Positions 18,627 to 61,558 of a DNA stretch of 64,000 bases are shown here, piece by piece. The stretch lies in IMG/VR virus record IMGVR_UViG_3300045747_000505; one strand, given 5' to 3'. Position 1 is the first letter of the stretch, and every line of letters begins with the position of its first letter. Below the pieces are notes generated by a model. The model was not told the origin of the DNA. It saw only the letters and a program-made list of their open reading frames with translations, and ran no database searches. A program made the translations under genes and the position numbers. This stretch comes from a virus. Taxonomy: Duplodnaviria > Caudoviricetes.

Positions 18627-18690
18627 AAGCGTAACAGACGAGGGACTGTTACGCTTTCGGGCAACCTGAAATCTAAAAGCGTGATAGAAT
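18627..18690 (+). promoter_or_regulatory. GTAAC/GTTAC inverted repeat + extended -10
   Basis: AAGCGTAACAG-N8-CTGTTACGCTT; TG-a-TAGAAT at 18685, 37 bp after GTTAC. Confidence 0.7.
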
Positions 18691-18719
18691 GGACACATCC
18701 AATCAAAAGGAACCCAATC

Positions 18720-19112
18720 ATGGCCCGCAAAACAGTCGCTCAACAACGTCAAGAAGAAGCCGCTCAACGCCTCGCCGAGTTTCAAGAGCTCGAGAAGACG
18801 CTGCCCAAGCAGCTCTTCGACCTTCAAGTGCGCGCCTCGAGGCTCAACTGGCTCACGATGCTGACGCTGTCCCCAGTTGGATACACCGTCGAGTTCCTCA
18901 ATGGAACGCACGACTCGCTGCTCACCGTCGAGATGCCACTGCGAATGGGAGACACCGAGCAGTGGCAGCTGGACGCCGTCGCCAACGTGCTGAAGACTCG
19001 CGAGGACGAGCTGGCTGAAGAAGCTGCCCGTCGCGAGCTGGCCAACACGGCTCTCGCCAAGCTGACCAAGGAAGAGCGCGCCGCACTGCGCCAACACTCC
19101 CACTTCCTCTGA
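18720..19112 (+). CDS. Hypothetical protein
   Basis: 130 aa from ATG 18720; AAGGA RBS. Confidence 0.75.
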   Translation: MARKTVAQQRQEEAAQRLAEFQELEKTLPKQLFDLQVRASRLNWLTMLTLSPVGYTVEFLNGTHDSLLTVEMPLRMGDTEQWQLDAVANVLKTREDELAEEAARRELANTALAKLTKEERAALRQHSHFL

Positions 19113-19199
19113 ACCGCACACAATTCCTTATTTGCCTACTAATGCTATTAGAAGTGCGCTGAGTGGTGTTAGTACGGCATCTCCTTTCATAGGGTGAAA

Positions 19200-19508
19200 A
19201 TGATCAATCTGAATCAGAAACCTGCCGAGGTCTTCAACCTCAAAGAAGGCGATCATGTCCTGCTCAATGGGATAGAATGCGTCATGTACTGTCAAGAGCT
19301 GACCAACGAGATCTTCTTCTCGACTGCGGACTCGCGCTTGGCTGAGTATCAAGCGCTTTGGGCTCACGGCGAGGGCCACAGTACTCGCTACACCGACTAC
19401 GTCCGCCACGCTCGCATCGGACGCCCTGCCGTCAATTCGCGCGCCGAGTTTCATCAAGCGCTGCTCAACGACCAAGTCGTCATCGACCCGCCGTTCATCG
19501 GCATCTAA
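19200..19508 (+). CDS. Hypothetical protein
   Basis: About 102 aa; AGGGTG upstream. Confidence 0.65.
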   Translation: MINLNQKPAEVFNLKEGDHVLLNGIECVMYCQELTNEIFFSTADSRLAEYQALWAHGEGHSTRYTDYVRHARIGRPAVNSRAEFHQALLNDQVVIDPPFIGI

Positions 19509-19517
19509 GGATTCCAC

Positions 19518-19964
19518 ATGTCTCTCCTCATTCGCATCAAGGCTGACCAACTTCAGGCTCGCAAGGGCAAGATGACCATGGTTGCCGCTCTGCTCACGAC
19601 CCTCATCGGCGAAGCCGAAGCCATCGGCAAGAACGCCGGCAACCGTGCCACGACCGATGACGAGGTCCTGGCCCTCATCGCCAAGTTCATCAAGAATCTC
19701 GACGAAACGATTCGTCTGCTTCCCGACACCGACGAGCGCAAGCTGTCGGCGATCTGTGAGCGCACCTGCCTCATGCAGTACCAGCCACGGCAGCTGACCG
19801 AGGCCGAGCTGAAGGACCACGTGCGCGCCATTCACGCCGGCCTGCTCGGCATGCAAGCCAAGGCTTCGATGGGCGACATCATAGGCGTGCTCAAGTCGCG
19901 CTTCGGCGGTCAGTACGACGGCAAGCTCGCTTCGGCCATCGTCAAGGCGGAGCTGGCATCATGA
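19518..19964 (+). CDS. GatB/YqeY-domain protein
   Basis: IKAD...ARK, LL..E, D.EVLALI.K.IKN..E, Y.PRQL.E.EL, MG..IG.LK....G..DGK.AS. Confidence 0.85.
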   Translation: MSLLIRIKADQLQARKGKMTMVAALLTTLIGEAEAIGKNAGNRATTDDEVLALIAKFIKNLDETIRLLPDTDERKLSAICERTCLMQYQPRQLTEAELKDHVRAIHAGLLGMQAKASMGDIIGVLKSRFGGQYDGKLASAIVKAELAS

Positions 19965-20176
19965 GATTTCACGACATCACCGGTCAGGGCATGATCGACG
20001 TTGACGAGATCGCCTTCGTCGGCGTCGTGCTGACCGACGAGCGGACCTACATCAACTGGCCGTACTCCATCGTGATTCGCCTGCGCGCCACCGACTCGAT
20101 CATTCTGTCCTTCAAGGACAAGGGCGACGCAATCGAGGCCCGCCGAAGCCTTATCACAGCCTGGGGTGATGTATGA
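19961..20176 (+). CDS. Hypothetical protein
   Basis: 71 aa; ATGA coupling at both ends. Confidence 0.7.
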   Translation: MRFHDITGQGMIDVDEIAFVGVVLTDERTYINWPYSIVIRLRATDSIILSFKDKGDAIEARRSLITAWGDV

Positions 20177-21696: not shown

Positions 21697-22214
21697 GCCA
21701 CAACTTTCGCCTCTACACCTTCGTCGCCGGTCTGTACCTCAGCGAGCTTCAGAAGGGTCTGCAGACCGCTCACGTGGTCGGCGAGCTGCACACGCTCTAT
21801 CGCTCGTACAGCGGTGCTGAAGAACGCGAGACGGCCATTCTCGACGAGTGGGCCGAGCTCGACAAGACCATCATCATTCTGTCGGCTGACAACCAGGCTG
21901 GTGTGCTGAACGCCTTCAACATGTTCGCCCCAGTCGCCATGGCCTCGCTGCGACTGCCGATGGCCCTGTTCTACGAGGACAAGGAGTCGATGAACGGCAT
22001 GGCCACGGCCTGCGGTGTCATCGTGCCGCAAGTCCTGTGGGACGTGACCTTCACGCCGTCGCAGTCGTTCTCTGGAGCTGAGGGCAAGATGCCAAGCTGG
22101 AAGCCCGCCTTCTACCAGCACATTCCGACCAACGGCGACCCGACCATCATCTACGGCGAGGGCTCTGACGAGTTCTCCTTCTGCAAGCTCCTCAAATCCT
22201 ACAGGTTCGCATAA
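21693..22214 (+). CDS. Peptidyl-tRNA hydrolase type 2 (PTH2)-like protein
   Basis: L....LS..QKGLQTAH.....W...DKTIIIL....FYE....G..TA.G pattern parallels PTH2 (GK.AAQ.AH..W...K.VL..T). Confidence 0.5.
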   Translation: MSHNFRLYTFVAGLYLSELQKGLQTAHVVGELHTLYRSYSGAEERETAILDEWAELDKTIIILSADNQAGVLNAFNMFAPVAMASLRLPMALFYEDKESMNGMATACGVIVPQVLWDVTFTPSQSFSGAEGKMPSWKPAFYQHIPTNGDPTIIYGEGSDEFSFCKLLKSYRFA

Positions 22215-22606
22215 TGCTTCGTCTCTCACAGCTCATCGCCTCCCTTCAGGCGTGTCAACAGATGTACGGCGACGTCGAGGTCATGAAGAATGATTTCGAG
22301 GACGGCATCATCCCTATTGCGCCACACGTCGAGTATCGGCGCGTGGCGCTCGATCTCGCCAACGGCAAGACCTCTGAGCTGCTCAGCGCCGCGGACTACT
22401 TCATGGCGCACGACGCGGTGCAGAATCACAACCACACTGTGACCGAGATTCAAGAGATCGTGGACAACTGGGAGATGCTGGGCGCCGAGCTGCGCGGCGT
22501 CTTCACCGATCCCAAGGAGCTCATGGACATGCACATGGTCGCCCACTGGCGGAACATCGCCATCGTGCAGGCCTGGGACAACTCGCCAGTCGTGCTGGTT
22601 CTGTAA
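22214..22606 (+). CDS. Hypothetical protein
   Basis: 130 aa; TAATG coupling. Confidence 0.7.
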   Translation: MLRLSQLIASLQACQQMYGDVEVMKNDFEDGIIPIAPHVEYRRVALDLANGKTSELLSAADYFMAHDAVQNHNHTVTEIQEIVDNWEMLGAELRGVFTDPKELMDMHMVAHWRNIAIVQAWDNSPVVLVL

Positions 22607-22651
22607 CAGCCGGCAATCGTTACACCTGAACCAACGATTGTGTGGTACAAT
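22602..22651 (+). promoter_or_regulatory. TGTAAC-N11-GTTACA element + extended -10
   Basis: Left arm contains the upstream TAA; TG-g-TACAAT at 22646 (27 bp, shorter spacing than the other copies). Confidence 0.6.
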
Positions 22652-22657
22652 GCAGAC

Positions 22658-22900
22658 ATGCAATCGGAGCTTCAAGTGACCAAAGACCAAAAGGCCAAGC
22701 TGTTCTTCTACGCGATCACGATCGTCGCCTTCCCTGGCTTTCTGATCCTGCTCGCCTTGATGCTGATCAACCCGTTCTGGTTTCGCCAGGACATGATTCA
22801 GTGGCTCATTCGCCTCTCGAAGCGCTTCGCCACCTATCGGCGCGAGACGGTCGAGGACATTCGTCGTGGTTACGTTCTCTTCGTGGACTGCTCAAAATGA
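22658..22900 (+). CDS. Small membrane protein, probably leaderless
   Basis: Hydrophobic LFFYAITIVAFPGFLILLALMLI; ATG 6 nt after the -10. Confidence 0.7.
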   Translation: MQSELQVTKDQKAKLFFYAITIVAFPGFLILLALMLINPFWFRQDMIQWLIRLSKRFATYRRETVEDIRRGYVLFVDCSK

Positions 22901-23106
22901 AACTTTTCCTCGCCACCTTTCGCCTCGAGCACAATCCCTACATGGGCCGGACCCGTGTTGACAAGGAGGTGTCCATGCGGCTGATCTGGGCCGCCAGCGA
23001 CGACGAGGCGGAGAAGAAGCTGTACGCTGCACTGGAGAAGCCGGCGCGCCCTGGCGACGACTCTACGTACGTCAAGGACCTGGACATCAACGAGGCCATT
23101 TCGTAA
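22897..23106 (+). CDS. Hypothetical protein
   Basis: 69 aa from ATG 22897 (ATGA overlap). Confidence 0.7.
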   Translation: MKLFLATFRLEHNPYMGRTRVDKEVSMRLIWAASDDEAEKKLYAALEKPARPGDDSTYVKDLDINEAIS

Positions 23107-23177
23107 CATGTCCATGGTAGGTAACATGGACATGTTACACTTTCGCCTGAGCCAGGATGCTCAGGCTGAAGTATAAT
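23103..23177 (+). promoter_or_regulatory. 14-bp GTAAC/GTTAC inverted repeat + TATAAT
   Basis: GTAACATGTCCATG-N8-CATGGACATGTTAC; TATAAT at 23172, 38 bp after GTTAC. Confidence 0.75.
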
Positions 23178-23204
23178 GACTCACCGTCAACCAAGGACCC
23201 AATC

Positions 23205-23786
23205 GTGATCGCACAAGACATCACCACCAAGAAGTTCATCGCCGTCTTCCCGCTCAGCCAGATCTGCGCTCAGTGGAAGGGCTACGTCATCGACGCCGCC
23301 GGCACCATCTACTCGAACCGTCAGACGAAGGACCCCAAGACCGTCAAGAAGATGCTCGGGACTCGGGTCTACGGCTCCAGTCAGCGCAACTTCACGCTGA
23401 ACAAGGTCAACCACCGTGGTGACCGTGTGCTGGCTCAAGCCAAGCGCGCCTCGACCTGGGTCAGGGAAACCGACCCGAAGCAGCTGGAGGTGCCGGAACT
23501 GCCGGCCGAAGCCAAGCCGCAGTGGCCGTTCCCGACCGACAAGGCGCAGAGCGATGCCTACCTCGGCAAGAAGCAGGACGTTCTGCAAGCCGTCAAGGAC
23601 CGTGGCCACGTCATCGCCTCCATCACCGAGGGCAAGCTGACCTTCGGTGCCGAGCCGAAGATTCACTCGACTCTGAAGTCCGTCGACGAAGAGGTCGCTC
23701 GTCTGGCCAAGCTGATGCCCGGCACCGTCTTCGTCAAGCTGCTCATCACCGGTGCCGTCGTCGCCGGTGGCCTGACCCACCTCTGA
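23205..23786 (+). CDS. Hypothetical protein
   Basis: GTG start after AAGGA; 193 aa. Confidence 0.75.
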   Translation: MIAQDITTKKFIAVFPLSQICAQWKGYVIDAAGTIYSNRQTKDPKTVKKMLGTRVYGSSQRNFTLNKVNHRGDRVLAQAKRASTWVRETDPKQLEVPELPAEAKPQWPFPTDKAQSDAYLGKKQDVLQAVKDRGHVIASITEGKLTFGAEPKIHSTLKSVDEEVARLAKLMPGTVFVKLLITGAVVAGGLTHL

Positions 23787-23803
23787 ATCCAGGAGTCGTC
23801 AAC

Positions 23804-24379: not shown

Positions 24380-24382
24380 GTC

Positions 24383-24444
24383 GTTACACCTTCCACGGGT
24401 TGTTACACTTTACCGGTGTACAACCCGTCAGGGTATGGTAGAAT
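24383..24444 (+). promoter_or_regulatory. Two GTTACAC boxes + extended -10
   Basis: GTTACAC at 24383 and 24402; TG-g-TAGAAT at 24439 (37 bp after the second box). Confidence 0.65.
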
Positions 24445-24469
24445 GGTCTCACCAACCGAGAACCTCACC

Positions 24470-24742
24470 ATGCGCCTCATCCTCTCCTTCAACGTCTCCG
24501 ACGACTGCACGTTCTCCTACACGGAGACGGTGCCGATCGAAGCCGAATCACCCGAAGCGGCAATCGTCGAGTTCGAAGAGCAGTGCACCGCCGCCAAGGC
24601 TCGGTGTGAGAAGTCCTGGTTCGACGGTGAGTTCACCGCCTTTGGTCGCACGTTCGACACGACCAACTTCTACTCTGGCGGTCTGATTCAGCTGCCATCC
24701 ATTCAAACCTTCGACGAGTGGTTCGAAGCCAACAAGGAATAA
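24470..24742 (+). CDS. Hypothetical protein
   Basis: 90 aa from ATG 24470. Confidence 0.65.
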   Translation: MRLILSFNVSDDCTFSYTETVPIEAESPEAAIVEFEEQCTAAKARCEKSWFDGEFTAFGRTFDTTNFYSGGLIQLPSIQTFDEWFEANKE

Positions 24743-24744
24743 TC

Positions 24745-27035: not shown

Positions 27036-27376
27036 GCTCAGCGGGACACTACATTGGACGTGACGACACGTCGGCAGAACCAACCAGGAAGCCGCTAGGG
27101 ATTGAGGGAGCACGGGATGGTGTTCTCAGTGTCGACCGCCTGAGCAAGCTCCCTGCCGTCGAACACCTGGCCGTCCTCGTCGAGAAGCCGTTCTCAGGAC
27201 CCGACGGCTACGGTGGAACCGAGTACGGTCACCTGCTCGAGTACCTCGCCTTCGAAAGTGAAAAAGCCCTCGAGGGCTGGATCCTCGCCGCCACCAAGCG
27301 GAACGATGTGTTTCGCATTCTTCGCACGAAGAAGCTAAGTTACACTGTTCACGCGTCAATCTCACTCGAAGCGTGA
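27032..27376 (+). CDS. Hypothetical protein inserted between topoisomerase subunits
   Basis: 114 aa; GGAG RBS; ATGA overlap. Confidence 0.7.
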   Translation: MSSAGHYIGRDDTSAEPTRKPLGIEGARDGVLSVDRLSKLPAVEHLAVLVEKPFSGPDGYGGTEYGHLLEYLAFESEKALEGWILAATKRNDVFRILRTKKLSYTVHASISLEA

Positions 27377-27382
27377 TATAAT
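27339..27382 (+). promoter_or_regulatory. GTTACAC box + extended -10, leaderless promoter for the gp52-like gene
   Basis: GTTACAC 27339; TG-a-TATAAT 27377 (38 bp); ATG 6 nt later. Confidence 0.7.
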
Positions 27383-27388
27383 CCTACC

Positions 27389-28768
27389 ATGGCACGAATC
27401 ATCAAAACCGACCACGGTCACACGACTCGCCGACGCATTCGCGTTCGCGATTATTTCAATTCGAGCGTCAAGACGTTCTCGCTGCACGACAACGTTCGCT
27501 CCATTCCACTGCTCACCGACGGCATGAAACCGTCGCAGCGCAAGTCCATCTGCGGCGCCCTGTCACGTGGCGAGACCGCTGGTGAGCTGCAGCTCGAACG
27601 GCTGGCTTCACTCATTGCCGCTCACACCGACTACCACCACGGCGCCGCGTCGCTCGTCGGCACCATCGTGGGCATGGCCAACGACAAGATGCCGGGCATG
27701 AACAACATCAACCTGTTCGTTCCGTCCGGTCAGTTCGGCTCTCGTCTCACCTCCGAGCCAGGCGCTGGTCGGTACATCTTCACCTATCTCAGCCCGTACT
27801 TCCGCGAGCTGTTCCGCAAGGACGACGACTGCATTCTCGATCCCATTCTGGTCGACGGCGAGAAGATCGAGCCGCACACCTACATTCCGCTGCTCCCGAT
27901 GTCGCTGGTCAACGGCGCGTCAGGCACCGGCACGGGCCATGGTTGTGAGATCTTCAGCTACCATCCTGAGAAGCTGCGCGACGCCATTCTGTCCGTGCTC
28001 GCCGGCCGAAAGCTGAAGCCGATGGGGCTGACGCCCTGGTTCCGTGGCTATCACGGCACCGTTGCTCGCAACCCTGAGACCAATCAGGTCACGACCACCG
28101 GCACGATCGAGATCGTCAACTCGACGACCATTCGCATCACCGAGCTGGCGCTTGGCGTCTACCTCGACTCGTACAAGAAGGTCCTCAACGACCTCGAGGA
28201 GGAAGAATTCATTCGGTCGTACGACGACGCTTCAACCGAGGATGGCTTCCACTTCACGTGCACCGTGCCGCGCTCGACCACAGCGCTCGACGAGGCCACG
28301 CTGCTCAAGAAGTTCAAGCTCATCGGTCGTGGCACCGAGAACTACACGCTGTGGAACACCGAGGGCACACTGCAGAAGTTCGACTCGCCCGAGGCGATCA
28401 TTGAAGCGTTCGTCCCATGGCGCCTCGCTCGCTACGAGGACCGTCGTCAGAAGCACATCGCTGATACGCGCGAGGCGATTCGCCTGCAGTCCGAGATTGT
28501 TCGCTTCATCCGCTTCTATCTGGCGAACACCAAGGTGTTCAAGGACACCGGCCGCGCCGACCTGATCGCCCTGCTGCTGTCGAAGAACTTCGTCGACTAC
28601 GATCGCCTGCTCTCGATGCCGATCTGGAACCTGACGAAGGACAAGATCGCCGAGCTCGAGCGAAAGCTGACCGACCTCAAGGCGCAGCTCGCCGCCCTCG
28701 AAGCCGACACGGCGAACGACATGTACGCTCGTGAGCTCAAGGCCTTCAAGTACAAGGAACGTCTGTGA
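27389..28768 (+). CDS. Type II DNA topoisomerase medium subunit (T4 gp52, GyrA/ParC-like)
   Basis: DGMKPSQRK, YHHG..SL, GQFGSR, catalytic AGRYI, LVNGASGTGTG. Confidence 0.95.
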   Translation: MARIIKTDHGHTTRRRIRVRDYFNSSVKTFSLHDNVRSIPLLTDGMKPSQRKSICGALSRGETAGELQLERLASLIAAHTDYHHGAASLVGTIVGMANDKMPGMNNINLFVPSGQFGSRLTSEPGAGRYIFTYLSPYFRELFRKDDDCILDPILVDGEKIEPHTYIPLLPMSLVNGASGTGTGHGCEIFSYHPEKLRDAILSVLAGRKLKPMGLTPWFRGYHGTVARNPETNQVTTTGTIEIVNSTTIRITELALGVYLDSYKKVLNDLEEEEFIRSYDDASTEDGFHFTCTVPRSTTALDEATLLKKFKLIGRGTENYTLWNTEGTLQKFDSPEAIIEAFVPWRLARYEDRRQKHIADTREAIRLQSEIVRFIRFYLANTKVFKDTGRADLIALLLSKNFVDYDRLLSMPIWNLTKDKIAELERKLTDLKAQLAALEADTANDMYARELKAFKYKERL

Positions 28769-31805: not shown

Positions 31806-32348
31806 ATGTCTACAAAACGCTCCGTCTACCTTTCATACCTCCTTCGGCACAAGCCCGAGACCGCTCACCTGACCCTCGACAAGGATGGTTGGTGCGACCT
31901 GAAGCAGCTGCTCGCCAACACGGACTTCACTCTTGAAGAGCTCGAGGACATCGTTGCCAAGGATGCCAAGCAGCGCTACTCCTTCTGGCCGGCGGCGTTG
32001 GCCAGCGCGCCGACTCACATTCGCGCCAATCAAGGGCACAGCACGACCGACGTCAAGCTGACCTTCACGAAGGCGGTGCCGCCGATCGTCCTCTACCACG
32101 GGTCCGACGCGCGCGTGATGCCAACCATTCTGAAGGATGGGTTGAAGGCGATGAACCGTCATCACGTGCACCTCTCCGCAGACCTTGAGGTCGCCAAGTC
32201 CGTTGGCGGTCGACGCAAGCGCGGCTTCGTTGTCTACGAGGTCAACGCCAAAGCGATGCTGGCGGACGGCATCGAGTTCTTCATCTCCGACAATGGCGTG
32301 TGGCTCGTCGACGCCGTTCCAGCAAAGTACCTGACGAAGACTTTGTAA
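31806..32348 (+). CDS. kptA: RNA 2'-phosphotransferase (Tpt1/KptA)
   Basis: LSYLLRH, LDKDGW, KQRY, IRANQGHS, LYHG, R.HVHLS, S.NGVWL. Confidence 0.95.
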   Translation: MSTKRSVYLSYLLRHKPETAHLTLDKDGWCDLKQLLANTDFTLEELEDIVAKDAKQRYSFWPAALASAPTHIRANQGHSTTDVKLTFTKAVPPIVLYHGSDARVMPTILKDGLKAMNRHHVHLSADLEVAKSVGGRRKRGFVVYEVNAKAMLADGIEFFISDNGVWLVDAVPAKYLTKTL

Positions 32349-32404
32349 CGGCGTTACAAATCGTCCTAAAAGATTGCTCCAGCCCGCCCAATTTGTGATA
32401 TGAT
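32342..32404 (+). promoter_or_regulatory. TTTGTAACG-G-CGTTACAAA palindrome + extended -10
   Basis: Perfect 9-bp inverted repeat containing the kptA stop; TG-a-TATGAT at 32399 (46 bp, atypical spacing). Confidence 0.6.
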
Positions 32405-52932: not shown

Positions 52933-52941
52933 GGATATCAA

Positions 52942-53139
52942 ATGAAAGTATTCAGTGACGCCGCCGTTTCGAAGGACTACGTTGATGCAGCAGCCACTGC
53001 TGCAGTTGCAACATCGTCGACCGTTATTGACGCTGTCGACGCCAAGCAAACGCTGCAAATCAAGCAGCTGCGCAATATCGTCGCCTTGTCCTTTGTTCTG
53101 AACCTCGTCATCACGCTGACGCTCAAGTTCCTCGTGTAA
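52942..53139 (+). CDS. Small protein with C-terminal transmembrane helix
   Basis: AAGGA RBS; IVALSFVLNLVITLTLKFLV. Confidence 0.7.
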   Translation: MKVFSDAAVSKDYVDAAATAAVATSSTVIDAVDAKQTLQIKQLRNIVALSFVLNLVITLTLKFLV

Positions 53140-53197
53140 CGACGCTTCGGTGTCGTTACACTTTAGTCCTACAGATTCCTGTAGGCTGATGTATAAT
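53134..53197 (+). promoter_or_regulatory. 12-bp GTAAC/GTTAC hairpin (TTCG loop) + TATAAT
   Basis: GTGTAACGACGC-TTCG-GTGTCGTTACAC then TTT; TATAAT at 53192 (37 bp); ATG 6 nt later. Confidence 0.75.
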
Positions 53198-53203
53198 GGC
53201 ACC

Positions 53204-53668
53204 ATGGACACCGATACCTACACCCTCCTGGAGTCAGAAGTCAACGACTGGCTGGCATACGCTTCCGTCACCCCGTACGATGCGCAATCGCGCGCCAAGT
53301 ACAAGGCGATTCGTGAGCGCATCTGCATGCTGTTCCGCGACTATCGTGCCGCTCACGTCGCCAACTGCAAGGTCACCGAGCTGCCCGAGCGCATCGTTCA
53401 GGTCAGCGAACGGACTCTCCGGCACATCGCCACCTGTCGCGCCAAGGAAGAGCAGGACAAAGAGGACCTGCGCAAGGAGCTTCTTGACAAGCTCACCCGC
53501 GCCAGTCGCGAGGCGCTCGTCAACCTCATCTGGGATCAGAAGGAAGACTACATTCGCGGCTTCGACTCGGTCACCGAAGGTGTCAGCGCCTGGGACTGCC
53601 TCATCGACTCCATTCGCTACGGCTACATCACTCGCGACAACCTCGCCCATCACGGCATCACCATCTGA
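53204..53668 (+). CDS. Hypothetical protein, probably leaderless
   Basis: 154 aa from ATG 53204. Confidence 0.75.
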   Translation: MDTDTYTLLESEVNDWLAYASVTPYDAQSRAKYKAIRERICMLFRDYRAAHVANCKVTELPERIVQVSERTLRHIATCRAKEEQDKEDLRKELLDKLTRASREALVNLIWDQKEDYIRGFDSVTEGVSAWDCLIDSIRYGYITRDNLAHHGITI

Positions 53669-53675
53669 GAACATC

Positions 53676-54073: not shown

Positions 54074-54356
54074 CTTCAGCCCAGACAACCACAACGCTGC
54101 CACCGCCATGCGAGCGGTGATCGAGCGGCAAGAAGCCGAAGCCAGGCTCGAAGTGGCAGAGCGCAACATTCGCGTCGCGCTCGTCAACATCGACGCTCGA
54201 CTGCCGACGCTCTACAAGGCGCAGGGCACCTTCAACGCCATGCGTGAACTGGCCCGAACACCCGATCAGAAGGTCGCCTCTGACGCGCTGGTCTCTTTCG
54301 CTGCCGCCTACGTCGACATGCTGGAAGGGCTTCGCAAGGAACTGACGAAGGTGTAA
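54063..54356 (+). CDS. Hypothetical protein
   Basis: 97 aa. Confidence 0.7.
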   Translation: MNPDFSPDNHNAATAMRAVIERQEAEARLEVAERNIRVALVNIDARLPTLYKAQGTFNAMRELARTPDQKVASDALVSFAAAYVDMLEGLRKELTKV

Positions 54357-54414
54357 CGATGGACGAGGGCGTTACACTTTGGCTTGAGCAGATTCCCCAG
54401 GATCAGGGTATAAT
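54351..54414 (+). promoter_or_regulatory. GTGTAACG-N11-CGTTACAC inverted repeat + TATAAT
   Basis: Contains the upstream TAA; TATAAT at 54409 (38 bp). Confidence 0.75.
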
Positions 54415-54445
54415 GACTCATCGTCACGCTGATACTGATTCTGAT

Positions 54446-54697
54446 ATGCACTGCCTCAACACCGCCCGCCGCGTCAGCTTCGCTGAATTTGTCGCGACCA
54501 CCACCCAGTTCATCTCGATGGTGCCTTCACTGCCGATCGACGATGCCGAGCGCATCTACGCCGTCATCAATCGGGACTACCTCAACACCACCTGCACCGA
54601 CAGCGATGAACCTCGCGCCGCTAGTCTGCTTCGCTGCGCTGCCGATGCCGTGTGCATCGCCGGTGGTCACGCTCCCCTCTTCAACTCCTTCGAGTGA
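54446..54697 (+). CDS. Hypothetical protein
   Basis: 83 aa from ATG 54446; start uncertain. Confidence 0.6.
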   Translation: MHCLNTARRVSFAEFVATTTQFISMVPSLPIDDAERIYAVINRDYLNTTCTDSDEPRAASLLRCAADAVCIAGGHAPLFNSFE

Positions 54698-54700
54698 ATC

Positions 54701-54940
54701 GTGGTTTCAAACCTTTCACTTCTTTCACCTGAAGCGTTTCGCGATCTCGTCGGCATGATCCTCGAGGCAGAGCGCGAGGCACGCGGAGGCCTGAAGACTT
54801 CGACGATGCATCAGCTCGAAAAGTGGCTGATCACAGGCGCCGCCCTGCACAACCCTTGGACTGACGAGCAGCTCCGTGAACTGCGCTTCACCGGTCTCAT
54901 GACCCTCGTCTACCGTCGCGTCCGTGACCAGGGCGTGTAA
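54701..54940 (+). CDS. Hypothetical protein
   Basis: 79 aa. Confidence 0.6.
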   Translation: MVSNLSLLSPEAFRDLVGMILEAEREARGGLKTSTMHQLEKWLITGAALHNPWTDEQLRELRFTGLMTLVYRRVRDQGV

Positions 54941-54984
54941 CGGTTACAACTTTTCCTACCACGGATTCAGGTTCGTGGTATAAT
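54936..54984 (+). promoter_or_regulatory. TGTAAC-G-GTTACA palindrome + extended -10
   Basis: Contains the upstream TAA; TG-g-TATAAT at 54979 (36 bp). Confidence 0.75.
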
Positions 54985-55009
54985 GGTCGCATACCAACGA
55001 AGGATCCCA

Positions 55010-56134
55010 ATGTTCCCGACCATCAACCATCTCAACGACCTGCTCCCGTACATTCAGGACAACCCGCAAATCCGGGTGAAGGTCGAGCCGAACGGCATGA
55101 CCGTCGTGTGCTACATGCTGCAAGACGAGGACACCTTCTCGGGTGCCAACGCCGACTTCGCTGCCGAGTGCCGTGGCATCACCTTTCACCAGAATGGCAA
55201 GATCGCTGCTCGTACCCTCCACAAGTTCTTCAACGTTGGTCAGGAAGACAGCACCCGTCCGGAGAACATCGACTGGACCAAGGTCGTTCGCATCATGGAC
55301 AAGCGTGATGGTTCGATGATCACTCCGGTCCTGGTCGGCGGTCTCGTGAAGTGCAAGACCAAGAAGTCGTTCGACACCAAGGAAGCGGCGCTGGCCGATT
55401 CGCTGGTGCGCGCTGATCCGGCGAAGCTGCAGTGGGTGAACGATCTGCTGCTTTGCGGCTACACCCCGACCTTCGAGGTGACCTCGCCGTCGCTGCCGAT
55501 CGTGCTGCTCTACGACAAGGACGAGCTGACCCTGCTTCACATTCGCTCGAACCGCACCGGTCGCTATCTGGACGAGGACGAGGTCAAGGCGTTCAAGCCG
55601 CCGTTCCCAATGGTCGAGAACGTGATGCAACGGTTCGTCGATGAGGCCACTGGCCTGGTCGACTGGGCGCTGCTGAAGGAAGCTGCTGAGGTCGCCACTG
55701 GTGTCGAGGGCTGGGTCATCCAGTTCGAGAACGGCGACATGGTCAAGCTGAAGACTCAGTGGTACTGCGACCTGCATCACTCGGTGACCTTCACCCGGTG
55801 GCGTGACATCGCCCGCTCGGTGGTTGCGGACCAGTCCGACGACTTGAAGGGCGCGTTCGCGATGACCGGTCGTTCGATCGAGCCGATTCTGACCGTCGAG
55901 CGTGGCATCAAGGGCAAGATCGAAACCGCCAAGATGGCGGTGAAGGAGATCGTGTTGCTGGGCGTCGTGACCGAGAAGGACGTCAAGGCCATGGCCATGG
56001 AGTACAAGTCGCACCCGATGTTCGGTCAGATCATGCGCGCCTTCCGTGGTCAAGAGATCAACTGGATGGAGTGGTACGAGAAGTTCCACCTCGACACTGA
56101 TTGGTCGCTGCTGGTTGTTGGAGATGAAGCATGA
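55010..56134 (+). CDS. RNA ligase 1 (T4 Rnl1 family)
   Basis: ECRGITF, HKFFNVGQ, motif I KRDGS, TFE, EGWVI, KLKTQWY. Confidence 0.9.
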   Translation: MFPTINHLNDLLPYIQDNPQIRVKVEPNGMTVVCYMLQDEDTFSGANADFAAECRGITFHQNGKIAARTLHKFFNVGQEDSTRPENIDWTKVVRIMDKRDGSMITPVLVGGLVKCKTKKSFDTKEAALADSLVRADPAKLQWVNDLLLCGYTPTFEVTSPSLPIVLLYDKDELTLLHIRSNRTGRYLDEDEVKAFKPPFPMVENVMQRFVDEATGLVDWALLKEAAEVATGVEGWVIQFENGDMVKLKTQWYCDLHHSVTFTRWRDIARSVVADQSDDLKGAFAMTGRSIEPILTVERGIKGKIETAKMAVKEIVLLGVVTEKDVKAMAMEYKSHPMFGQIMRAFRGQEINWMEWYEKFHLDTDWSLLVVGDEA

Positions 56135-56460: not shown

Positions 56461-56461
56461 G

Positions 56462-56638: not shown

Positions 56639-56640
56639 TC

Positions 56641-56868
56641 ATGAAACACGAAGTTGAAGAAGCGCAGCGGTTGCTGCAACCAATGCTTGACCTGTTCGGC
56701 GGTGCCGATGGTGGCGTTGCGTTCGCCAAGCTTCGGCACGGATTCCTGCCGGACATCATCAGAGTGCACACCGAGAAGTCAACCCAAACGTCGGAGGACT
56801 TTCTGCGAATGGTCGAGCAGTTCTCAAGGCTTTGCCAGCTGATGCTGGACCAGAGCAAAAAGGGTTAG
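56641..56868 (+). CDS. Hypothetical protein
   Basis: 75 aa. Confidence 0.6.
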   Translation: MKHEVEEAQRLLQPMLDLFGGADGGVAFAKLRHGFLPDIIRVHTEKSTQTSEDFLRMVEQFSRLCQLMLDQSKKG

Positions 56869-57077
56869 AGCGACGAACCCAGATTGCGCTCGATCAGCGC
56901 ATCGATCTTCTCCAACGACTGCTTCAACACCAACCCGATCTGAGGATGGGAGCGAAACGCCCACGCCTTTTCTTGCAGCTGGGATCGAACATCGACCAGC
57001 TGCATAGGGGTAAGGGTCTCCCAAGTGTTCGCTGGCGGGATCGGCTTGGTGGCTTCGTCGACGTACTGAATTGACAT
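56865..57077 (-). CDS. Small late protein
   Basis: 70 aa; AGGAG RBS; TAAATA at 57102-57107 (minus); N-terminus MSIQYVDE. Confidence 0.7.
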   Translation of the reverse strand: MSIQYVDEATKPIPPANTWETLTPMQLVDVRSQLQEKAWAFRSHPQIGLVLKQSLEKIDALIERNLGSSL

Positions 57078-57101
57078 AGGCTGCTCCTGAGTTTGACTGA
57101 C

Positions 57102-57134
57102 TATTTATGTTCGTTCAACGGCGGACTATAAATA
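57102..57134. promoter_or_regulatory. Divergent pair of T4-type late promoters
   Basis: TAAATA on minus (57102-57107) and full TATAAATA on plus (57127-57134). Confidence 0.75.
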
Positions 57135-57166
57135 GAATCAGAACAACACTTACCGCGAGCACTTAC

Positions 57167-57541
57167 ATGGCGTTCACTCTTCTTCAGCAAGTCTCCGTCT
57201 TCGAAGGTCAAGGACCTGTCTCGGTCAAGCTCACCCTTGGCGAGATCATTCGCGACGGTAAGGTCACGAACCCTTATCAAATCTACGTGCTCTCGTGGTT
57301 GTCCGAGTTCTTCAAGAACGGGCAGAAGTCAGCTGCCCTTCAGCTCGAGATGCCAGTCTCGATTGGCAGCAACGCGACAAATACCGAAGTCATCGACAGT
57401 CTCAAGAAGATGTCGCCTGCCGACCAAGTTCACCTTGCCCAGTACCTCAGTGATTGCATAGATGCCGGCGAATCGGCGGTGCACGACGCGAAGTCGACCA
57501 TTGTGGATTGGATGAAGTTCGTTCTGCACAAGCAGAAGTAA
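57167..57541 (+). CDS. Late hypothetical protein, candidate internal head protein
   Basis: 124 aa from ATG 57167; MAFTLLQQVSVFE. Confidence 0.7.
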   Translation: MAFTLLQQVSVFEGQGPVSVKLTLGEIIRDGKVTNPYQIYVLSWLSEFFKNGQKSAALQLEMPVSIGSNATNTEVIDSLKKMSPADQVHLAQYLSDCIDAGESAVHDAKSTIVDWMKFVLHKQK

Positions 57542-57707
57542 AGAATTCACGTCGAGTAATCGACCTCTGAAAGCCGACGCTGGTCAATCCTACAAATAGT
57601 GAATCGCTATTGCGACTCAAGCACTCTCCTCAGACCAGCCCGTTCGGTAACTCGCGCCTCGACTAACGTCGAGGTATTCCGTCCTCCCTGTTTTCGTAGG
57701 AGAAATA

Positions 57708-58502
57708 ATGGGAAGAAGACTCGCACTGGCATCAAAGCAAAAGTATCCACAAGACTCTAAGTCTGCTCAACTTCACGAGGGAAAAGCTATTCGACTGCGC
57801 AACAATCCAACCCCACAATCGGCCTCTCAAGAGTACTACCTTGAGTCGCTGAACAATGCCGATGTCACAATCGGAACAGGGCCAGCCGGCTCTGGCAAGT
57901 CCTTTCTGGCGATGTCCGTCGCCGTCAAGAAGCTCCTCGATGGAGACGTCCAGCGGGTCGTGATCACACGGCCAATCGTTGAGGCGGGTGAATCACTTGG
58001 CTTTCTGCCAGGCACCTTCGAGGAGAAAATCTCTCCGTACCTCCTCCCACTGCTCGATGCGCTGCAGGACCTAGTCGGTCCGACGATGGCGAAGAAACTC
58101 CTCGACGAGAAGAAGATCGAGTTTGCTCCGTTGGCGTACATGCGCGGTCGCACGTTCAACAACTGCTACGTCATTCTTGACGAGGCGCAGAACACGACCA
58201 TTGAGCAGATGAAGCTGTTCCTGACCCGCATCGGCAACTACTCGCGGTTCGCTGTGAATGGTGATGCAAGTCAGACGGACCTTCGTGGAGTGCCGGAGAC
58301 TGGACTTGAGTGGGCAGTACGAAAGCTGCGTGGTCGCATGGAAGGGATCAACGTGATCGAGTTTAGCCATAGCGACGTCGTCCGCTCCGAGGTGCTGAAG
58401 CGCATGCTGAAGTATCTCGACGCGCCGGATGAGCGTGTTGTGCGCGAGCCGCGAGCCGCTCGCGCCACCGGTGGTGTGAAGCCTGCTATCTTCGCAGGCT
58501 AA
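57708..58502 (+). CDS. phoH: PhoH-family ATPase
   Basis: GPAGSGKS, TRP.VE..E.LGFLPG, YMRGRTF, LDEAQN, GD..Q.DL, DVVRS. Confidence 0.95.
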   Translation: MGRRLALASKQKYPQDSKSAQLHEGKAIRLRNNPTPQSASQEYYLESLNNADVTIGTGPAGSGKSFLAMSVAVKKLLDGDVQRVVITRPIVEAGESLGFLPGTFEEKISPYLLPLLDALQDLVGPTMAKKLLDEKKIEFAPLAYMRGRTFNNCYVILDEAQNTTIEQMKLFLTRIGNYSRFAVNGDASQTDLRGVPETGLEWAVRKLRGRMEGINVIEFSHSDVVRSEVLKRMLKYLDAPDERVVREPRAARATGGVKPAIFAG

Positions 58503-58520
58503 GGAGCCCGCCGCACCTTT

Positions 58521-58546
58521 GAAGGGACCCTTGTGGTCCCTTTTTT
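58521..58546 (+). terminator. Rho-independent terminator
   Basis: AAGGGACC-cttgt-GGTCCCTT followed by TTTT. Confidence 0.85.
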
Positions 58547-58549
58547 GCG

Positions 58550-58555
58550 TAAATA
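58550..58555 (+). promoter_or_regulatory. T4-type late promoter (TAAATA)
   Basis: Immediately after the phoH terminator, before a structural gene. Confidence 0.65.
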
Positions 58556-58621
58556 CATTTGCGCTTTGTTAGACAGTCGGCCTTAAGCGCGTCCATTATC
58601 CCCAGCCGACGAGGAGTCATC

Positions 58622-60655
58622 ATGAGCTACACATTCAACTACACAAACGCCGCGCTGAACAACAAGGCACCATTCAGCGTTGCCGTCGGCACGCTTGACA
58701 CGACCACCACGGACTTGACCTTCACCGGCAAGGGCGCTGCGAACTTTGGTCAAGCACAGCAAACCAATCTTCTTCGCCTGCTTGAGAACTTCGCCAACAC
58801 GACCGAACCGACTCACGCCACCATCGGTCAGCTCTGGTATGACTCGTCTGAACGCACTCTCAAGGTCTGCACGCAGTCCACGCCGACCAAGGTCTGGCAA
58901 GAGCTGAATGGCGTTCAAGTCACGGACATTGGTGAGCCAGCACCTGGCACCGTGTCGCTTCCACCGCTGCTCGGTGACATGTGGCTTCAGCGCACTGGCA
59001 CTGGCTCTGGCTATCTCTACGTCTTCACTGGGCTCGGACGCTATCCAACGACGGCAACTACCATCGGCGGCTGGGAGCAGATTTGGCCCGCCGTTGAAGT
59101 CTACGCTGGACGCGACGAGTATGACTCGATGCGTCAGCTGCTTGACATGCTCTGCGGCGTCGGTGTCTCGACCTACGGGTCTGGAGCCATTGGGCACTCG
59201 ACCAGCGCGTCAAACCTGACTGACTTCGCAGCACTCGACCTCGACCTGCGCACCAAGTACAAGGCGCTCGGTGTCGATGCCAACGTGCTGTACTCGCCGA
59301 ACTCCGAGCTTGGCATCAGCGAGCAGGACATCAGCAAGACGCTCTTCTACTTCAACGATGCGAACACCTCTGGCGACGGTTACCTCAGCGGACCTGACGT
59401 TGGTGGCTACCCATCGCTGACCTCAGCCGGTTCATTCCTTCTCGATGGTGTCGTCACCGCCGTAGCTGCGCAAACTCCAATCTGGCACAGTCAGCAGGTT
59501 GATGGTGGCTACATCATGTACGACGGCACCAACGCGCTGGTCGCCACGAACGTTGGTGCTCTCACGGCTGACTACTTCGTCGTTCAGCAGCTGCCGACTG
59601 GTCAGTGGCAGTATGACAACAACACAACGTGGGTCAACTTCACGCCAGCTGCCAATCAGCTCATCATCGGCACCATCACGTCTGGTCTCGACAACAACTC
59701 GCTCAGTCCAGTCGACATCGTCGCAATCGTCTGGGCGCACGCTGTACCGTTGGTGGTCGCTCGTCCGAAGTACGAACATCTGAAGGTCGAGCCGAACTCA
59801 CAGGACTGGGACGCTCTGCTCTCAGTCGTGAAGTACGCGCTCAGCCGTCTTGACCTGCCAGCTGGTTTCACTCGCACCGTCAGTCAGCTGCCGTTCGTCT
59901 GCGACGGTCGTCAGGTGCCAGCATCGCTTCAAGGTCTCGCCACCACCGACGTTCGCTATCCATCGCCAGCTCGTCGAGCCGGTCGTCGTGGTTCATCCGT
60001 TGGTCTTGGACAATCATTCGCTGAGACCATCAACGCATTGAACGTTGCCATCGACAATCGCTTCTCGCTGCGTGGCATCAACGGCGCCTCTGGCACGAAC
60101 ACCACGCTGCTCTCGACAGCCAGCATCGACACTGGGCTCACCGCAACTGGCGCGCCAACCGTCGTTGGCGTCACAACGGATGCAACGTTCCGACTTTCAT
60201 TCGCGTCCGATGACCAGCTGATGCGCTGGCTTGGTGCTGGCTCCGCCATTCGCTTTGCCTTCACGCACACTGGTGGCGCTAGCCCAGGCGACACGAACCT
60301 GCGCACGCTGTTCAGCAGCGGTCTGTACGTCATCACCGCTGACCGAGTCCGCGTCTTCGACAGTACCGCCTCGCTGCACGCCACTCAGGCAACCGTGGGC
60401 ATGGGGCTGTGGAATGCTACAGCCGGTGGTCAGCAGCTCGCTACGTACACCAACGGCGCTACGCTGACGGTCTTTGCCGCCGTGTCTCGAACAATTGGTT
60501 CGGTCTATTTCGATATCACCTTCGTCCTCACTCCAAATGGTGCGGTTGCTGGTTCTTTGTCGACCGTGATTACTTTGGTTCAAGACCACGAAAATAGCGG
60601 CGCAGTTTACCCAATTTTGACCAACGCAAATCTGACCGCAACGAATAGTTTCTAA
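58622..60655 (+). CDS. Baseplate/tail-fibre-type structural protein
   Basis: 677 aa from ATG 58622 (GAGGAG RBS); LL.LLENFA...P....GQLWYD...LKV N-terminal module. Confidence 0.75.
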   Translation: MSYTFNYTNAALNNKAPFSVAVGTLDTTTTDLTFTGKGAANFGQAQQTNLLRLLENFANTTEPTHATIGQLWYDSSERTLKVCTQSTPTKVWQELNGVQVTDIGEPAPGTVSLPPLLGDMWLQRTGTGSGYLYVFTGLGRYPTTATTIGGWEQIWPAVEVYAGRDEYDSMRQLLDMLCGVGVSTYGSGAIGHSTSASNLTDFAALDLDLRTKYKALGVDANVLYSPNSELGISEQDISKTLFYFNDANTSGDGYLSGPDVGGYPSLTSAGSFLLDGVVTAVAAQTPIWHSQQVDGGYIMYDGTNALVATNVGALTADYFVVQQLPTGQWQYDNNTTWVNFTPAANQLIIGTITSGLDNNSLSPVDIVAIVWAHAVPLVVARPKYEHLKVEPNSQDWDALLSVVKYALSRLDLPAGFTRTVSQLPFVCDGRQVPASLQGLATTDVRYPSPARRAGRRGSSVGLGQSFAETINALNVAIDNRFSLRGINGASGTNTTLLSTASIDTGLTATGAPTVVGVTTDATFRLSFASDDQLMRWLGAGSAIRFAFTHTGGASPGDTNLRTLFSSGLYVITADRVRVFDSTASLHATQATVGMGLWNATAGGQQLATYTNGATLTVFAAVSRTIGSVYFDITFVLTPNGAVAGSLSTVITLVQDHENSGAVYPILTNANLTATNSF

Positions 60656-60670
60656 CCAGCATTATTCGGT

Positions 60671-60728
60671 GTACACGGGGTTCGTTTTACTCTATAATGA
60701 GCCATCGCTTCGAGAAAGCGAACCCCGT
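60671..60728 (+). promoter_or_regulatory. GTACACGGGGTTCG-class promoter bracketed by a perfect 10-bp inverted repeat
   Basis: GTACAC-N16-TATAAT; ACGGGGTTCG (60675) / CGAACCCCGT (60719). Confidence 0.7.
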
Positions 60729-60752
60729 TAATCCAAACTAGAGGAGCAGATT

Positions 60753-61019
60753 TTGATCCCAACCCGTGCACCCGTTATCGCCACCGGTCAACTCTTTCTC
60801 AACGAGGCTCTCAACGAATACCTCATAGTGACCAAAAATGTTCGAGGTCAAATCTATTACGCTGGACCTGGCTTTCGTGGTTTCTCGGAGGACAATAGCT
60901 TCGTCGAGCGTTTTCAACCCGTGGATCCGGCTGACGTCGAGCCGACAGAACTTCGGACGCTGATCGAGTTCTGCCCAATTGGCACTCGCGCTGCGACCGG
61001 CTATATTGCAAAGGACTAA
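60753..61019 (+). CDS. Hypothetical protein
   Basis: TTG start after GAGGAG; 88 aa. Confidence 0.7.
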   Translation: MIPTRAPVIATGQLFLNEALNEYLIVTKNVRGQIYYAGPGFRGFSEDNSFVERFQPVDPADVEPTELRTLIEFCPIGTRAATGYIAKD

Positions 61020-61024
61020 ATCAA

Positions 61025-61501
61025 ATGGCTATTATCTCAACACGAATGCTTGGCGAGGGAACTGACGAACAGTTTCTCAAGGAGCTTCGAGACGAAATTC
61101 AACTCCGCGCCAATCGAGTTCTCGGCGCCAACGCCATTCAAATCACCACAGATAAGGTCGATTTGATGTCGTCGCTGTCCGGCCTGATCGAAGGTTACGA
61201 GAACGCGACCATGACGATGCTGAGCGATATTCGTGGCTACCAGCTCACCAACGCCATCATGCAGGTCGAGCTGTCTCAAGCGGCAGCGACGATTCGCGCT
61301 TTGACCGCCGTTCCATACGATGCCGCCCTTGATTCGGCGGTGACCGAGTTCATGGACGTGCTGACGTCAACGGTTAATGGTGCCAGCATGTCGCCGGACA
61401 ATACTGTCGTCTTCGATGGGCGTCAAACGATTGGCAAGGGTGATTTGAAACCCGTGCTGCGTGAAGCCATCACGCGCTGGATCGATCAGCGCCTTTCGTA
61501 A
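61025..61501 (+). CDS. Hypothetical protein
   Basis: 158 aa; AAGGA RBS. Confidence 0.75.
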   Translation: MAIISTRMLGEGTDEQFLKELRDEIQLRANRVLGANAIQITTDKVDLMSSLSGLIEGYENATMTMLSDIRGYQLTNAIMQVELSQAAATIRALTAVPYDAALDSAVTEFMDVLTSTVNGASMSPDNTVVFDGRQTIGKGDLKPVLREAITRWIDQRLS

Positions 61502-61558
61502 CAAGCTCAGGATCGTTACACTTTAACCGGTGGCGATCCACCGAATCGAGTGTATAAT
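61498..61558 (+). promoter_or_regulatory. GTAAC-N12-GTTAC element + TATAAT
   Basis: Contains the upstream TAA; TATAAT at 61553 (38 bp). Confidence 0.7.

Follow-up and report, generated by a model that had tools for sequence, protein, structure and literature searches.

Background

Integron attC sites are imperfect palindromes of 57-141 bp with R''/L''-L'/R' cores; they need IntI, and their cassettes are promoterless. The MotA box of phage T4, (a/t)(a/t)(a/t)TGCTTtA, is centred at -30, 11-13 bp from the -10 element, and acts with AsiA, whereas the pho boxes of cyanophages and the Spo0A boxes of phi29/Nf belong to phage promoters that use host response regulators. PeSL elements pair an early promoter with a neighbouring stem-loop; in T4-like phages they recur ahead of orphan genes within the hyperplastic regions, next to indels (Arbiol et al. 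2010, PMC2839356; Comeau et al. 2014, PMC4122927). Here we compare with these systems a recurrent GTAAC...GTTAC element found at ten gene junctions of a 64,000-nucleotide stretch of DNA, IMG/VR record IMGVR_UViG_3300045747_000505 (Duplodnaviria; Caudoviricetes), which is part of a large lytic phage of the jumbo class, uncultured and from freshwater. We refer to the whole stretch as the window, and coordinates are those of the window.

We consider it probable that these elements are self-contained expression units, in which a GTTACA box probably recruits an activator and the upstream arm or stem closes the preceding gene, and which bound accessory cassettes.

Ten recurrent units in the window

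Scanning the window for GTAAC-N0-30-GTTAC gave 9 matches, spread over 8 loci, where shuffled sequences predict 0.30, and every match fell at a place named in the original prediction, an earlier description of this DNA. The pattern GTTAC-N28-34-TANAAT was matched 8 times, against 0.02 expected, and on the + strand only. With this enrichment, the observation of ten recurrent units at gene junctions is confirmed in full. A relaxed scan of both strands, allowing up to 3 mismatches in the 10-bp box at three distance classes, detected no extra sites in the window.

The exact distances agree with the 36-38 bp that had been claimed between GTTAC and TAnAAT at eight of the ten sites. From the start of GTTAC to the start of the -10 element we counted 37 bp at 18648, 24402 and 53155, 38 bp at 23134, 27339, 54371 and 61515, and 36 bp at 54943; the outliers were 22619, with 27 bp (TACAAT), and 32353, with 46 bp (TATGAT). 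The reported lack of a recognisable TTGACA also held, as a canonical two-hexamer sigma-70 scan returned no -35 at any of the four units within 43000-62500.

An inverted GTAAC arm was identified at 8 of the 10 sites, with site-specific stems of 5 to 14 bp, just as had been described. Site 24402 has no inverted arm and carries instead a direct GTTACA copy 19 bp upstream; site 27339 has neither. At seven of the eight armed sites the upstream gene ends on the TAA of GTAAC (22603, 23103, 32345, 53136, 54353, 54937 and 61498), again as claimed, and the eighth, at 18631, has no codirectional upstream gene, so that the TAA stop lies in the arm in 7/7 codirectional cases.

The ten units are listed below, with the predicted -10 element and the open reading frame (ORF) or gene that follows.

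Unit 1, 18627..18722, + strand: arm AAGCGTAAC from 18627; box GTTACGCTTT at 18648; -10 TAGAAT at 18685-18690; 29-nucleotide leader with AAGGA; ATG at 18720 (130-amino-acid ORF, no family); upstream gene on the opposite strand; RNA hairpin of -15.7 kcal/mol, z -5.3.
Unit 2, short class, 22602..22660, + strand: TGTAAC at 22602, its TAA being the stop of gene 22214-22606; box GTTACACCTG at 22619; -10 TACAAT at 22646-22651, at a distance of 27 bp; leaderless ATG at 22658; weak hairpin of -3.8 kcal/mol, z -0.5.
Unit 3, 23103..23207, + strand: two GTAAC copies, the outer at 23103 (stop of gene 22897-23106) and the inner at 23121; box at 23134; -10 TATAAT at 23172-23177; GTG start at 23205 (193 amino acids); 14-bp stem, -23.6 kcal/mol, z -6.9; spacer hairpin of -16.6 kcal/mol, p = 0.003.
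Unit 4, 24383..24472, + strand: box at 24402, with a direct copy GTTACA 19 bp ahead of it at 24383; TGTACA as -35-like hexamer; -10 TAGAAT at 24439-24444; ATG at 24470 (90 amino acids).
Unit 5, 27339..27391, + strand: box GTTACACTGT at 27339, abutting the TAA stop of the neighbour frame of gene 27032-27376; armless; -10 TATAAT at 27377-27382; gene of the topoisomerase II medium subunit, with a leaderless ATG at 27389.
Unit 6, atypical, 32342..32404, + strand: palindrome TTTGTAAC-GGC-GTTACAAA, its TAA being the stop of the Tpt1/KptA gene; divergent box flank; TATGAT 46 bp downstream; next gene start near 32521; hairpin of -5.4 kcal/mol, z -2.4; uncertain as a promoter.
Unit 7, 53134..53206, + strand: GTGTAAC arm, its TAA being the stop of gene 52942-53139; box at 53155; 12-bp stem with a TTCG loop (UUCG in RNA) and one G-T pair (G-U), hairpin of -19.5 kcal/mol, z -6.5; spacer hairpin of -13.3 kcal/mol, p < 0.004; -10 TATAAT at 53192-53197; leaderless ATG at 53204 (154 amino acids).
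Unit 8, 54351..54448, + strand: GTGTAAC arm, its TAA being the stop of gene 54063-54356; box at 54371; -10 TATAAT at 54409-54414; ATG at 54446 (83 amino acids); hairpin of -12.3 kcal/mol, z -4.5, with the box CTTT included in the stem.
Unit 9, 54936..55012, + strand: tight palindrome TGTAAC-G-GTTACA, its TAA being the stop of gene 54701-54940; box at 54943; -10 TATAAT at 54979-54984; AAGGA leader; ATG at 55010 of a T4 Rnl1-type RNA ligase; negligible hairpin of -0.9 kcal/mol.
Unit 10, 61498..61585, + strand: GTAAC arm, its TAA being the stop of gene 61025-61501; box at 61515; -10 TATAAT at 61553-61558; AAGGA leader; ATG at 61583 (143 amino acids); weak hairpin of -3.2 kcal/mol.

Conservation of the units in related phages

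We scanned IMG/VR for the box together with the -10 element; most hits were single chance matches, and kin were recognised by protein similarity. In full scans, the pattern was matched in one orientation 9 times in G001 (93 kb), 11 times in G003 (342 kb, complete with terminal repeats) and 8 times in the near-complete G009 (350 kb). G002, G004, G006 and G010 gave a few matches each, and no pattern match was found in G007 (251 kb, estimated 70% complete). The box architecture with a TGTACA -35-like hexamer was present in G001, G002, G003, G004, G006, G009, G010 and L130, which range from 43 to 60% G+C, and this range argues that the motif is maintained by selection and not by base composition.

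The distances from box to -10 in five assembled contigs fall into a main class of 36-38 bp (n=31), a short class of 26-27 bp (n=3), in which the box stands one helical turn nearer the -10, and a group at 55-57 bp (n=6), which reflects a direct copy located 19 bp upstream of the main box; the opposite strand gave 0. The same distance is kept without any arm in units 4 and 5, in 8/8 units of G009 and in most G003 units, which indicates that the box belongs to the promoter and is more than just a hairpin arm.

Gene order is collinear between the window, G001, G003 and five further loci. Between the window and G001 the unit is kept at orthologous genes, namely those of the topoisomerase II medium subunit and the RNA ligase, and the tight palindrome of unit 9 stands before the orthologous ligase gene in both G001 and L130. 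A megablast search with 20 kb gave no match to isolated phages, and protein searches returned distant relatives only, with Xanthomonas jumbo phages at 49% for topoisomerase II, plus PhoH matches. The best relative in an RNA ligase scan of metagenomes and viral records was 75% identical, and no near-identical strain with other cassette content appeared in these ligase scans.

We also searched 185,579 bacterial and archaeal genomes for GTTACA-N9-TGTACA-N16-17-TANAAT. The 116 matches were single, mostly in AT-rich taxa and close to the number estimated for chance, thus this is not a general host promoter type. In an attempt to infer the host, the Tpt1 gene gave matches of 42-50% scattered over many phyla.

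Promoter anatomy

Aligning 30 units from the window and four related contigs revealed conservation beyond the search pattern. GTTAC is followed by A in 28/30 units and C in 23/30, and then by three T residues (20/30, 25/30 and 25/30), giving a box consensus of GTTACAyTTT, with AG frequently next. A G is present four bases 5' of the -10 element in 22/30 units, and the seventh base after the -10 element is A, also in 22/30.

In 10/33 units an ORF of 40 codons or more opens with an ATG at the sixth or seventh base after the -10 element (22658, 27389 and 53204 in the window; 3757, 12082, 48949, 52952 and 73337 in G001; 320788 in G003), and the units without such an ATG have an A/C-rich leader of about 20 nucleotides with AAGGA. 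From the position of these ATGs, transcription would start there and the messages would be leaderless; the position appears hard to account for unless transcription begins at that point. With the start placed at the A, the box would span about -49 to -40. In a phage whose promoters are sigma-70-like, leaderless starts are out of the ordinary, and they may be a clue to the lineage of the host.

The -35 region differs between the window and its relatives. In the relatives a TGTACA hexamer is found 16-17 bp before the -10 element, and in the window it is kept by unit 4 only; site-specific palindromes occupy the -35 and spacer region at 23145-23166, 27344-27373, 53168-53185, 54957-54976 and 61521-61536. 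The mean z of spacer folding was -1.9 in the window (p <= 0.033 in 4/8), -0.55 in G001 and -0.06 in G003, where palindromes are absent and the spacers carry the TGTACA hexamer and a CCTGG/CAGGAT-like motif in their place. Two explanations of the spacing were tried and given up: extrusion of the spacer hairpin, bringing the box to -35 distance, left inconsistent residual distances, and a box acting as the -35 hexamer in the short class would leave a spacer of 20-21 bp.

Two other predicted promoters, at 13303-13335 and 60667-60698, share GTACACGGGGTTCG, which comprises the -35-like TGTACA and a conserved spacer start, followed by TAGAAT or TATAAT and without the GTTACA box. Perhaps they form a further small class.

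The box as a candidate activator site

The box appears to be a conserved promoter element and is most likely the binding site of an activator. This is suggested by its place just upstream of a weak -35 region, by a spacing that is held within 1 bp across unrelated spacers, by the class shifted by one helical turn, and by an unrelated box, NAACCT, which fills the same slot at other promoters. The latter was found at 36-39 bp before TAnAAT in 19 forward cases versus 4 reverse ones; (C/G/T)AACCT boxes start at 15665, 19236 and 31759 in the window, with about 17 more in G001, G003 and G002. The three window sites fall inside upstream ORFs, at their 3' ends, and some start codons thus seem to need correction (e.g. 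gene 19194). A second box type in the same slot argues for class-specific factors, and the GTTACA class is one of at least three promoter classes in the phage.

The original prediction had proposed an activator box analogous to that of T4 MotA, combined with a terminator hairpin. An activator box with a hairpin fits best, because box sequence and distance are kept without the hairpin and in distant relatives, and because of the shifted class and the second box. The analogy to MotA holds only loosely, as the box would lie at -49 to -40 and not at -30, and its sequence is unrelated. The MotA C-terminal domain (MotCF) was not detected in G003, G001 or G002, with a profile that also matched no control genome, and the complete G003 yielded no sigma-70 region 2 protein.

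The hexamer recalls the sites of some bacterial response regulators: the Escherichia coli OmpR motif is KWWGTTACAT, with the repeat GTTACATTTTGTTACAT (PMC5438342), the consensus from chromatin immunoprecipitation sequencing of Bordetella RisA is GTTACA (PMC11019879), and the RstA box TACATNTNGTTACA includes GTTACA (PMC4117788). No OmpR-type winged helix (Trans_reg_C) was found in G003 or G009, thus a regulator of this type would have to be a host protein. We regard the likeness of GTTACA to an OmpR/RisA/RstA half-site as a lead and not a finding, and none of the papers listed by a literature search for the motif in phage promoters contains GTTACA. It is accordingly a tentative and rather doubtful idea, drawn from motif resemblance, that a freshwater jumbo-phage clade drives swappable cassettes through the half-site of a host envelope-stress regulator of the OmpR/RisA/RstA kind, the box doubling as the 3' arm of a stem.

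Possible cassette gain and loss at the units

Comparison with G001 showed that whole unit-led cassettes differ between the two phages. In the ligase region G001 has a tail-end gene, a small gene, one unit and the ligase, whereas in the window three genes stand between units 7 and 8 and two between units 8 and 9, with a small gene ahead of unit 7 and the ligase behind unit 9. The window therefore has two extra unit-led cassettes with 5 genes (53204-54940), which occupy precisely the interval from the unit that follows gene 52942 to that of the ligase. The same pattern was seen at 22214-25005, between the 21693 homologue and the topoisomerase large subunit, where G001 has two units and three genes, and the window three units and seven genes, one of them shared. 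As the relatives are about 60% identical at the protein level, these cassette borders are resolved to genes and not to bases. The slot before the ligase, after the tail module, holds unrelated cargo in every relative examined, and units are clustered in certain regions of G003 and G009.

The claim that the elements border accessory modules thus agrees with the synteny, since the extra genes of the window relative to G001 are bounded by units. Of the earlier proposal that they serve to shuffle cassettes, a weaker form survives: from the synteny and the match to PeSL elements, the units bound modules that were gained or lost, and they may also have a role in exchange. We therefore suggest that the units mark, and may promote by homologous exchange, points of cassette gain and loss. 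The profile of tyrosine recombinases (PF00589, Phage_integrase) found nothing in the complete G003 or in G001, G002 and G004, although it matched 14/14 control genomes, and the Y1 HUH transposase domain was likewise missing from G003 and three other relatives, with its controls matched. In view of this, any exchange would proceed by the general recombination of the phage, as proposed for PeSLs.

The alternative that survives best takes the units, repeats of 60-90 bp, primarily as recombination substrates, either homology patches or structure-specific sites as in the PeSL model with mini-circles, with a secondary promoter role; we hold it to be possible, though unlikely. It would account for the flanking of the extra window genes by units on both sides, for the changing cargo between tail module and ligase and for the clustering in G003 and G009, and exchange at PeSLs was shown experimentally in T4-like phages (PMC2839356). 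However, identity between units extends over only about 10-12 contiguous bases plus the -10 element, no close strain with other cassette content was found, the relatives gave no recombinase, and the strict -10 spacing and the leaderless ATG are explained by transcription instead.

Contigs of four DNA sequencing runs aligned to 44001-64000 were short pieces, and among the joints listed none lay at a unit; the comparison speaks neither for nor against breakpoints there. Wetland and pond samples contained 59-95% of the k-mers, and the runs listed for this DNA included no RNA run. One wetland run had a diverged strain, about 90% identical over 52600-53553, with a 6-base insertion, GACACC, at 53206, duplicating codons 2-3 of the leaderless gene directly behind unit 7.

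Hairpins, arms and stop codons

Four of the eight window hairpins are strong (-12.3 to -23.6 kcal/mol, z -4.4 to -6.9); three of the others are marginal, and the last falls in between. When only the interior was shuffled and the arms were kept fixed, 5/14 longer hairpins across the phages folded better than chance, which indicates that a real structure is selected at a subset of sites. In unit 1 an A-to-G change in the box is matched by a C in the arm (the one compensatory case seen), and together with the UUCG loop and G-U pair of unit 7 this favours the + strand transcript as the molecule that folds. Counting G-U pairs versus A-C mismatches, as a way to tell an RNA stem from a DNA palindrome, gave about 4 flanked G-U against 0-1 A-C, too few informative positions, and was set aside.

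The overlap with the stop codon is specific to the units. TAA stops near units stand in a GTAAC context in 7/7 cases in the window and 6/6 in G001, and those elsewhere in 3/26, 3/24 and 13/170. The three background cases of the window (3/26 TAA stops), at 34797, 51786 and 62232, are G-TAA-C stops without a unit behind them. The general rule is extreme packing, in which the unit starts at the stop codon; an armless unit, such as unit 5, has the stop directly against the box.

G009 has no arms at 8/8 units, and at 2/8 a canonical terminator is located directly before the box; terminators at this same place favour a terminator-like role and match the PeSL layout. As it is strong at only about half of the sites and has no free U-tract, the hairpin would be at best a leaky terminator or a 3'-end stem.

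Several observations weigh against our interpretation of the units as self-contained expression units. The hairpins are marginal at 3/8 window sites and at many sites in the relatives, at most 3 U follow the stem, and in the strong units 1 and 8 the box CTT/CTTT lies inside the stem. No unit hairpin passes the canonical terminator scan, whereas the phage has canonical terminators before its late promoters; with half of the hairpins marginal, the terminator part of the original prediction comes out weak. The arms, overall 6-31 bp apart, show a bimodal arm-to-box spacing of 6-9 and 16-20 bp with almost nothing between, which fits a second protein site on DNA better than an RNA stem. The first genes behind units lack a homologue in the four relatives in 7/10 cases versus 21/54 other genes, a trend only (the same seven have no Pfam family), and the variable block 56131-57077 has no unit. 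As for the regulator, the OmpR-type match consists of a 6-bp core and a T-rich flank, and no conserved AC/TACA lies 10-11 bp to either side of the box, the further copies being at 6-9, 16-20 or 15 bp, although OmpR-type dimers normally need a tandem half-site.

The bimodal spacing is also what an operator array would predict, in which the GTWAC copies (box, upstream copy and TGTACA) are repressor or silencer sites that would turn these promoters off at a set time and the arm is a second operator. Whether direct or inverted, the upstream copy stands at 6-9 or at 16-20 bp (about one helical turn apart), and poorly folding tight palindromes (TGTAAC-G-GTTACA) are kept at the orthologous ligase promoter in three phages; OmpR itself is reported to bind head-to-tail or head-to-head (PMC4117788). 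We give this explanation some weight but find it improbable, as a site at -49 to -40 does not occlude the polymerase, a poor -35 argues for activation, the site-specific complementarity of the interiors cannot serve a common protein, and G009 lacks the second copy. Less probable still is a signal acting at the RNA level only, with the conserved GUUACACUUU and the stems as processing or stability signals and TAnAAT incidental: the UUCG tetraloop and G-U pairs in strong stems and the stop codon overlap would suit it, but the distance to TAnAAT is held within 1 bp over unrelated spacers and phages, an A or ATG occurs at the seventh base after the -10, and the box is kept without a stem. The integron-like form of the original prediction, with the hairpins as short attC-type sites cut at G/TT by a tyrosine or HUH recombinase, is the least credible of all and goes unsupported, since beyond a superficial likeness (inverted AAC...GTT cores over the stop codon, variable stems) neither a Phage_integrase nor a Y1 domain was found in the complete G003 and three relatives, every cassette has its own promoter, the hairpins are too heterogeneous, with 3/8 stems negligible, and 2/10 window units as well as all 8 of G009 are armless.

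Proposed mechanism

Taking the units as self-contained expression units, we propose the following order of events. The preceding gene would end with its TAA usually within the GTAAC arm, and the box GTTACAyTTT would come next, at about -49 to -40, followed by a weak or absent -35 (TGTACA in the relatives, often a site-specific palindrome here) and by a TAnAAT -10 with a G four bases upstream. Transcription would begin from the A seven bases after the -10, and translation either from that A, as a leaderless ATG, or after the A/C-rich AAGGA leader of about 20 nucleotides. A host polymerase of the sigma-70 type presumably uses the -10, and the poor -35 would make a protein bound to the box, on one helix face, necessary; its reader could be an unrecognised protein of the phage or, on the host side, an OmpR/RisA/RstA-type response regulator.

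In the read-through transcript the GTAAC arm would pair with the box and form a stem-loop at the stop codon, which most likely insulates the cassette, either as a leaky terminator or by stabilising the 3' end. Finally, lying in one orientation at the borders of accessory genes, the units may mark points of cassette exchange as PeSL elements do.

Genomic context and late promoters

Nearly all genes at 11.5-62 kb are on the + strand. The window encodes both topoisomerase II subunits, a helicase and a 1937-amino-acid tape-measure-like protein. Its RNA-repair and chaperone cargo (14535-15815, 19518-19964, 29447-32348, 55010-56134 and 57708-58502) includes the T4 Rnl1-type RNA ligase, the Tpt1/KptA RNA 2'-phosphotransferase, two DnaJ proteins and PhoH, and further guanylate-kinase-like, SIS-domain, YqeY and circularly permuted YpsA (SLOG) proteins.

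A separate late class, ATAAATAG, was identified in 11 copies, 8 of which are intergenic and two preceded by canonical terminators; the intergenic copies, as follows, include the back-to-back pairs 2367/2390 and 57109/57127.

2390 (+), 2367 (-), 11474 (-), 39608 (+), 41693 (+), 43217 (+), 57127 (+) and 57109 (-): T4-like late motif (C/A/T)ATAAATAG(A/G), intergenic, before structural and other genes.

A textbook intrinsic terminator (43182-43207) precedes the copy at 43217, and the gap 58503-58621 contains a related GTAAATAC behind a GC-rich hairpin with a T run.

The units supply a precise and testable promoter grammar, made of the box, its two helical phases, the -10 and the leaderless start, for huge phages known only from metagenomes. 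It helps to separate early/middle genes from late (ATAAATAG) ones, to correct start codons and to locate cassette borders, and it would extend the PeSL idea, of portable promoter and hairpin joints in the shuffling of accessory genes, beyond T4-like phages. If the reader is indeed a host OmpR-type protein, this would clearly exemplify how a phage can wire many of its genes into a host stress circuit, and the expression of swappable genes would be tied to the physiological state of the host.

Comparison with known systems

With attC sites the units share inverted AAC...GTT cores, a variable interior and a location at cassette borders. Unlike in attC, their arms are only 6-31 bp apart, the arm is dispensable, each cassette has its own -10 and the relatives have no integrase. 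T4 middle promoters resemble them in having a good -10, no usable -35, a class-specific upstream box and a separate late class (TATAAATA-like). The MotA box, on the other hand, is different from GTTACAyTTT, which is found 36-38 bp (rarely 26-27) before the -10 element, thus at -49 to -40 or rarely -39 to -30.

By sequence resemblance alone, the OmpR, RisA and RstA sites have the GTTACA hexamer (TACA core) and a T-rich 3' flank in common with the box; their promoters, too, carry the site just upstream of a weak -35 and in several copies, direct or inverted. However, the box has no second half-site at 10-11 bp, and its upstream flank is not T-rich. As for the pho and Spo0A boxes, phage genes stand there under a host two-component regulator site, as would be the case here; those boxes serve one or few promoters, whereas here a genome-wide class is concerned, whose link to a host regulator is one of resemblance. 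A phage promoter under a host response regulator is described in PMC2731898.

PeSL elements share the most with the units. In both, a stem-loop with a conserved stem base lies just upstream of a sigma-70-type promoter, a ribosome site and a start codon, and many copies in the same orientation precede small orphan genes in variable regions, beside indels or replacements. Compared with this layout, a -10 and a start were found at 10/10 units, an arm at 8/10, and either an AAGGA leader or a leaderless ATG. The differences concern the promoter above all: PeSLs have good -35 hexamers and an AT-rich upstream region, whereas the units have a fixed box at -49 to -40 and a poor -35. In addition, the box of the units is the 3' arm of the stem and occurs in two helical phases, the 5' arm contains the stop codon, one start in three is leaderless, and the stems are often weak and no more than putative terminators. 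The phage itself is not of the T4-like lineage, though it has T4-type late promoters and a topoisomerase II. On this comparison, PeSL elements seem to be the closest described kind, and the units would represent a variant of them with a distinct promoter logic.

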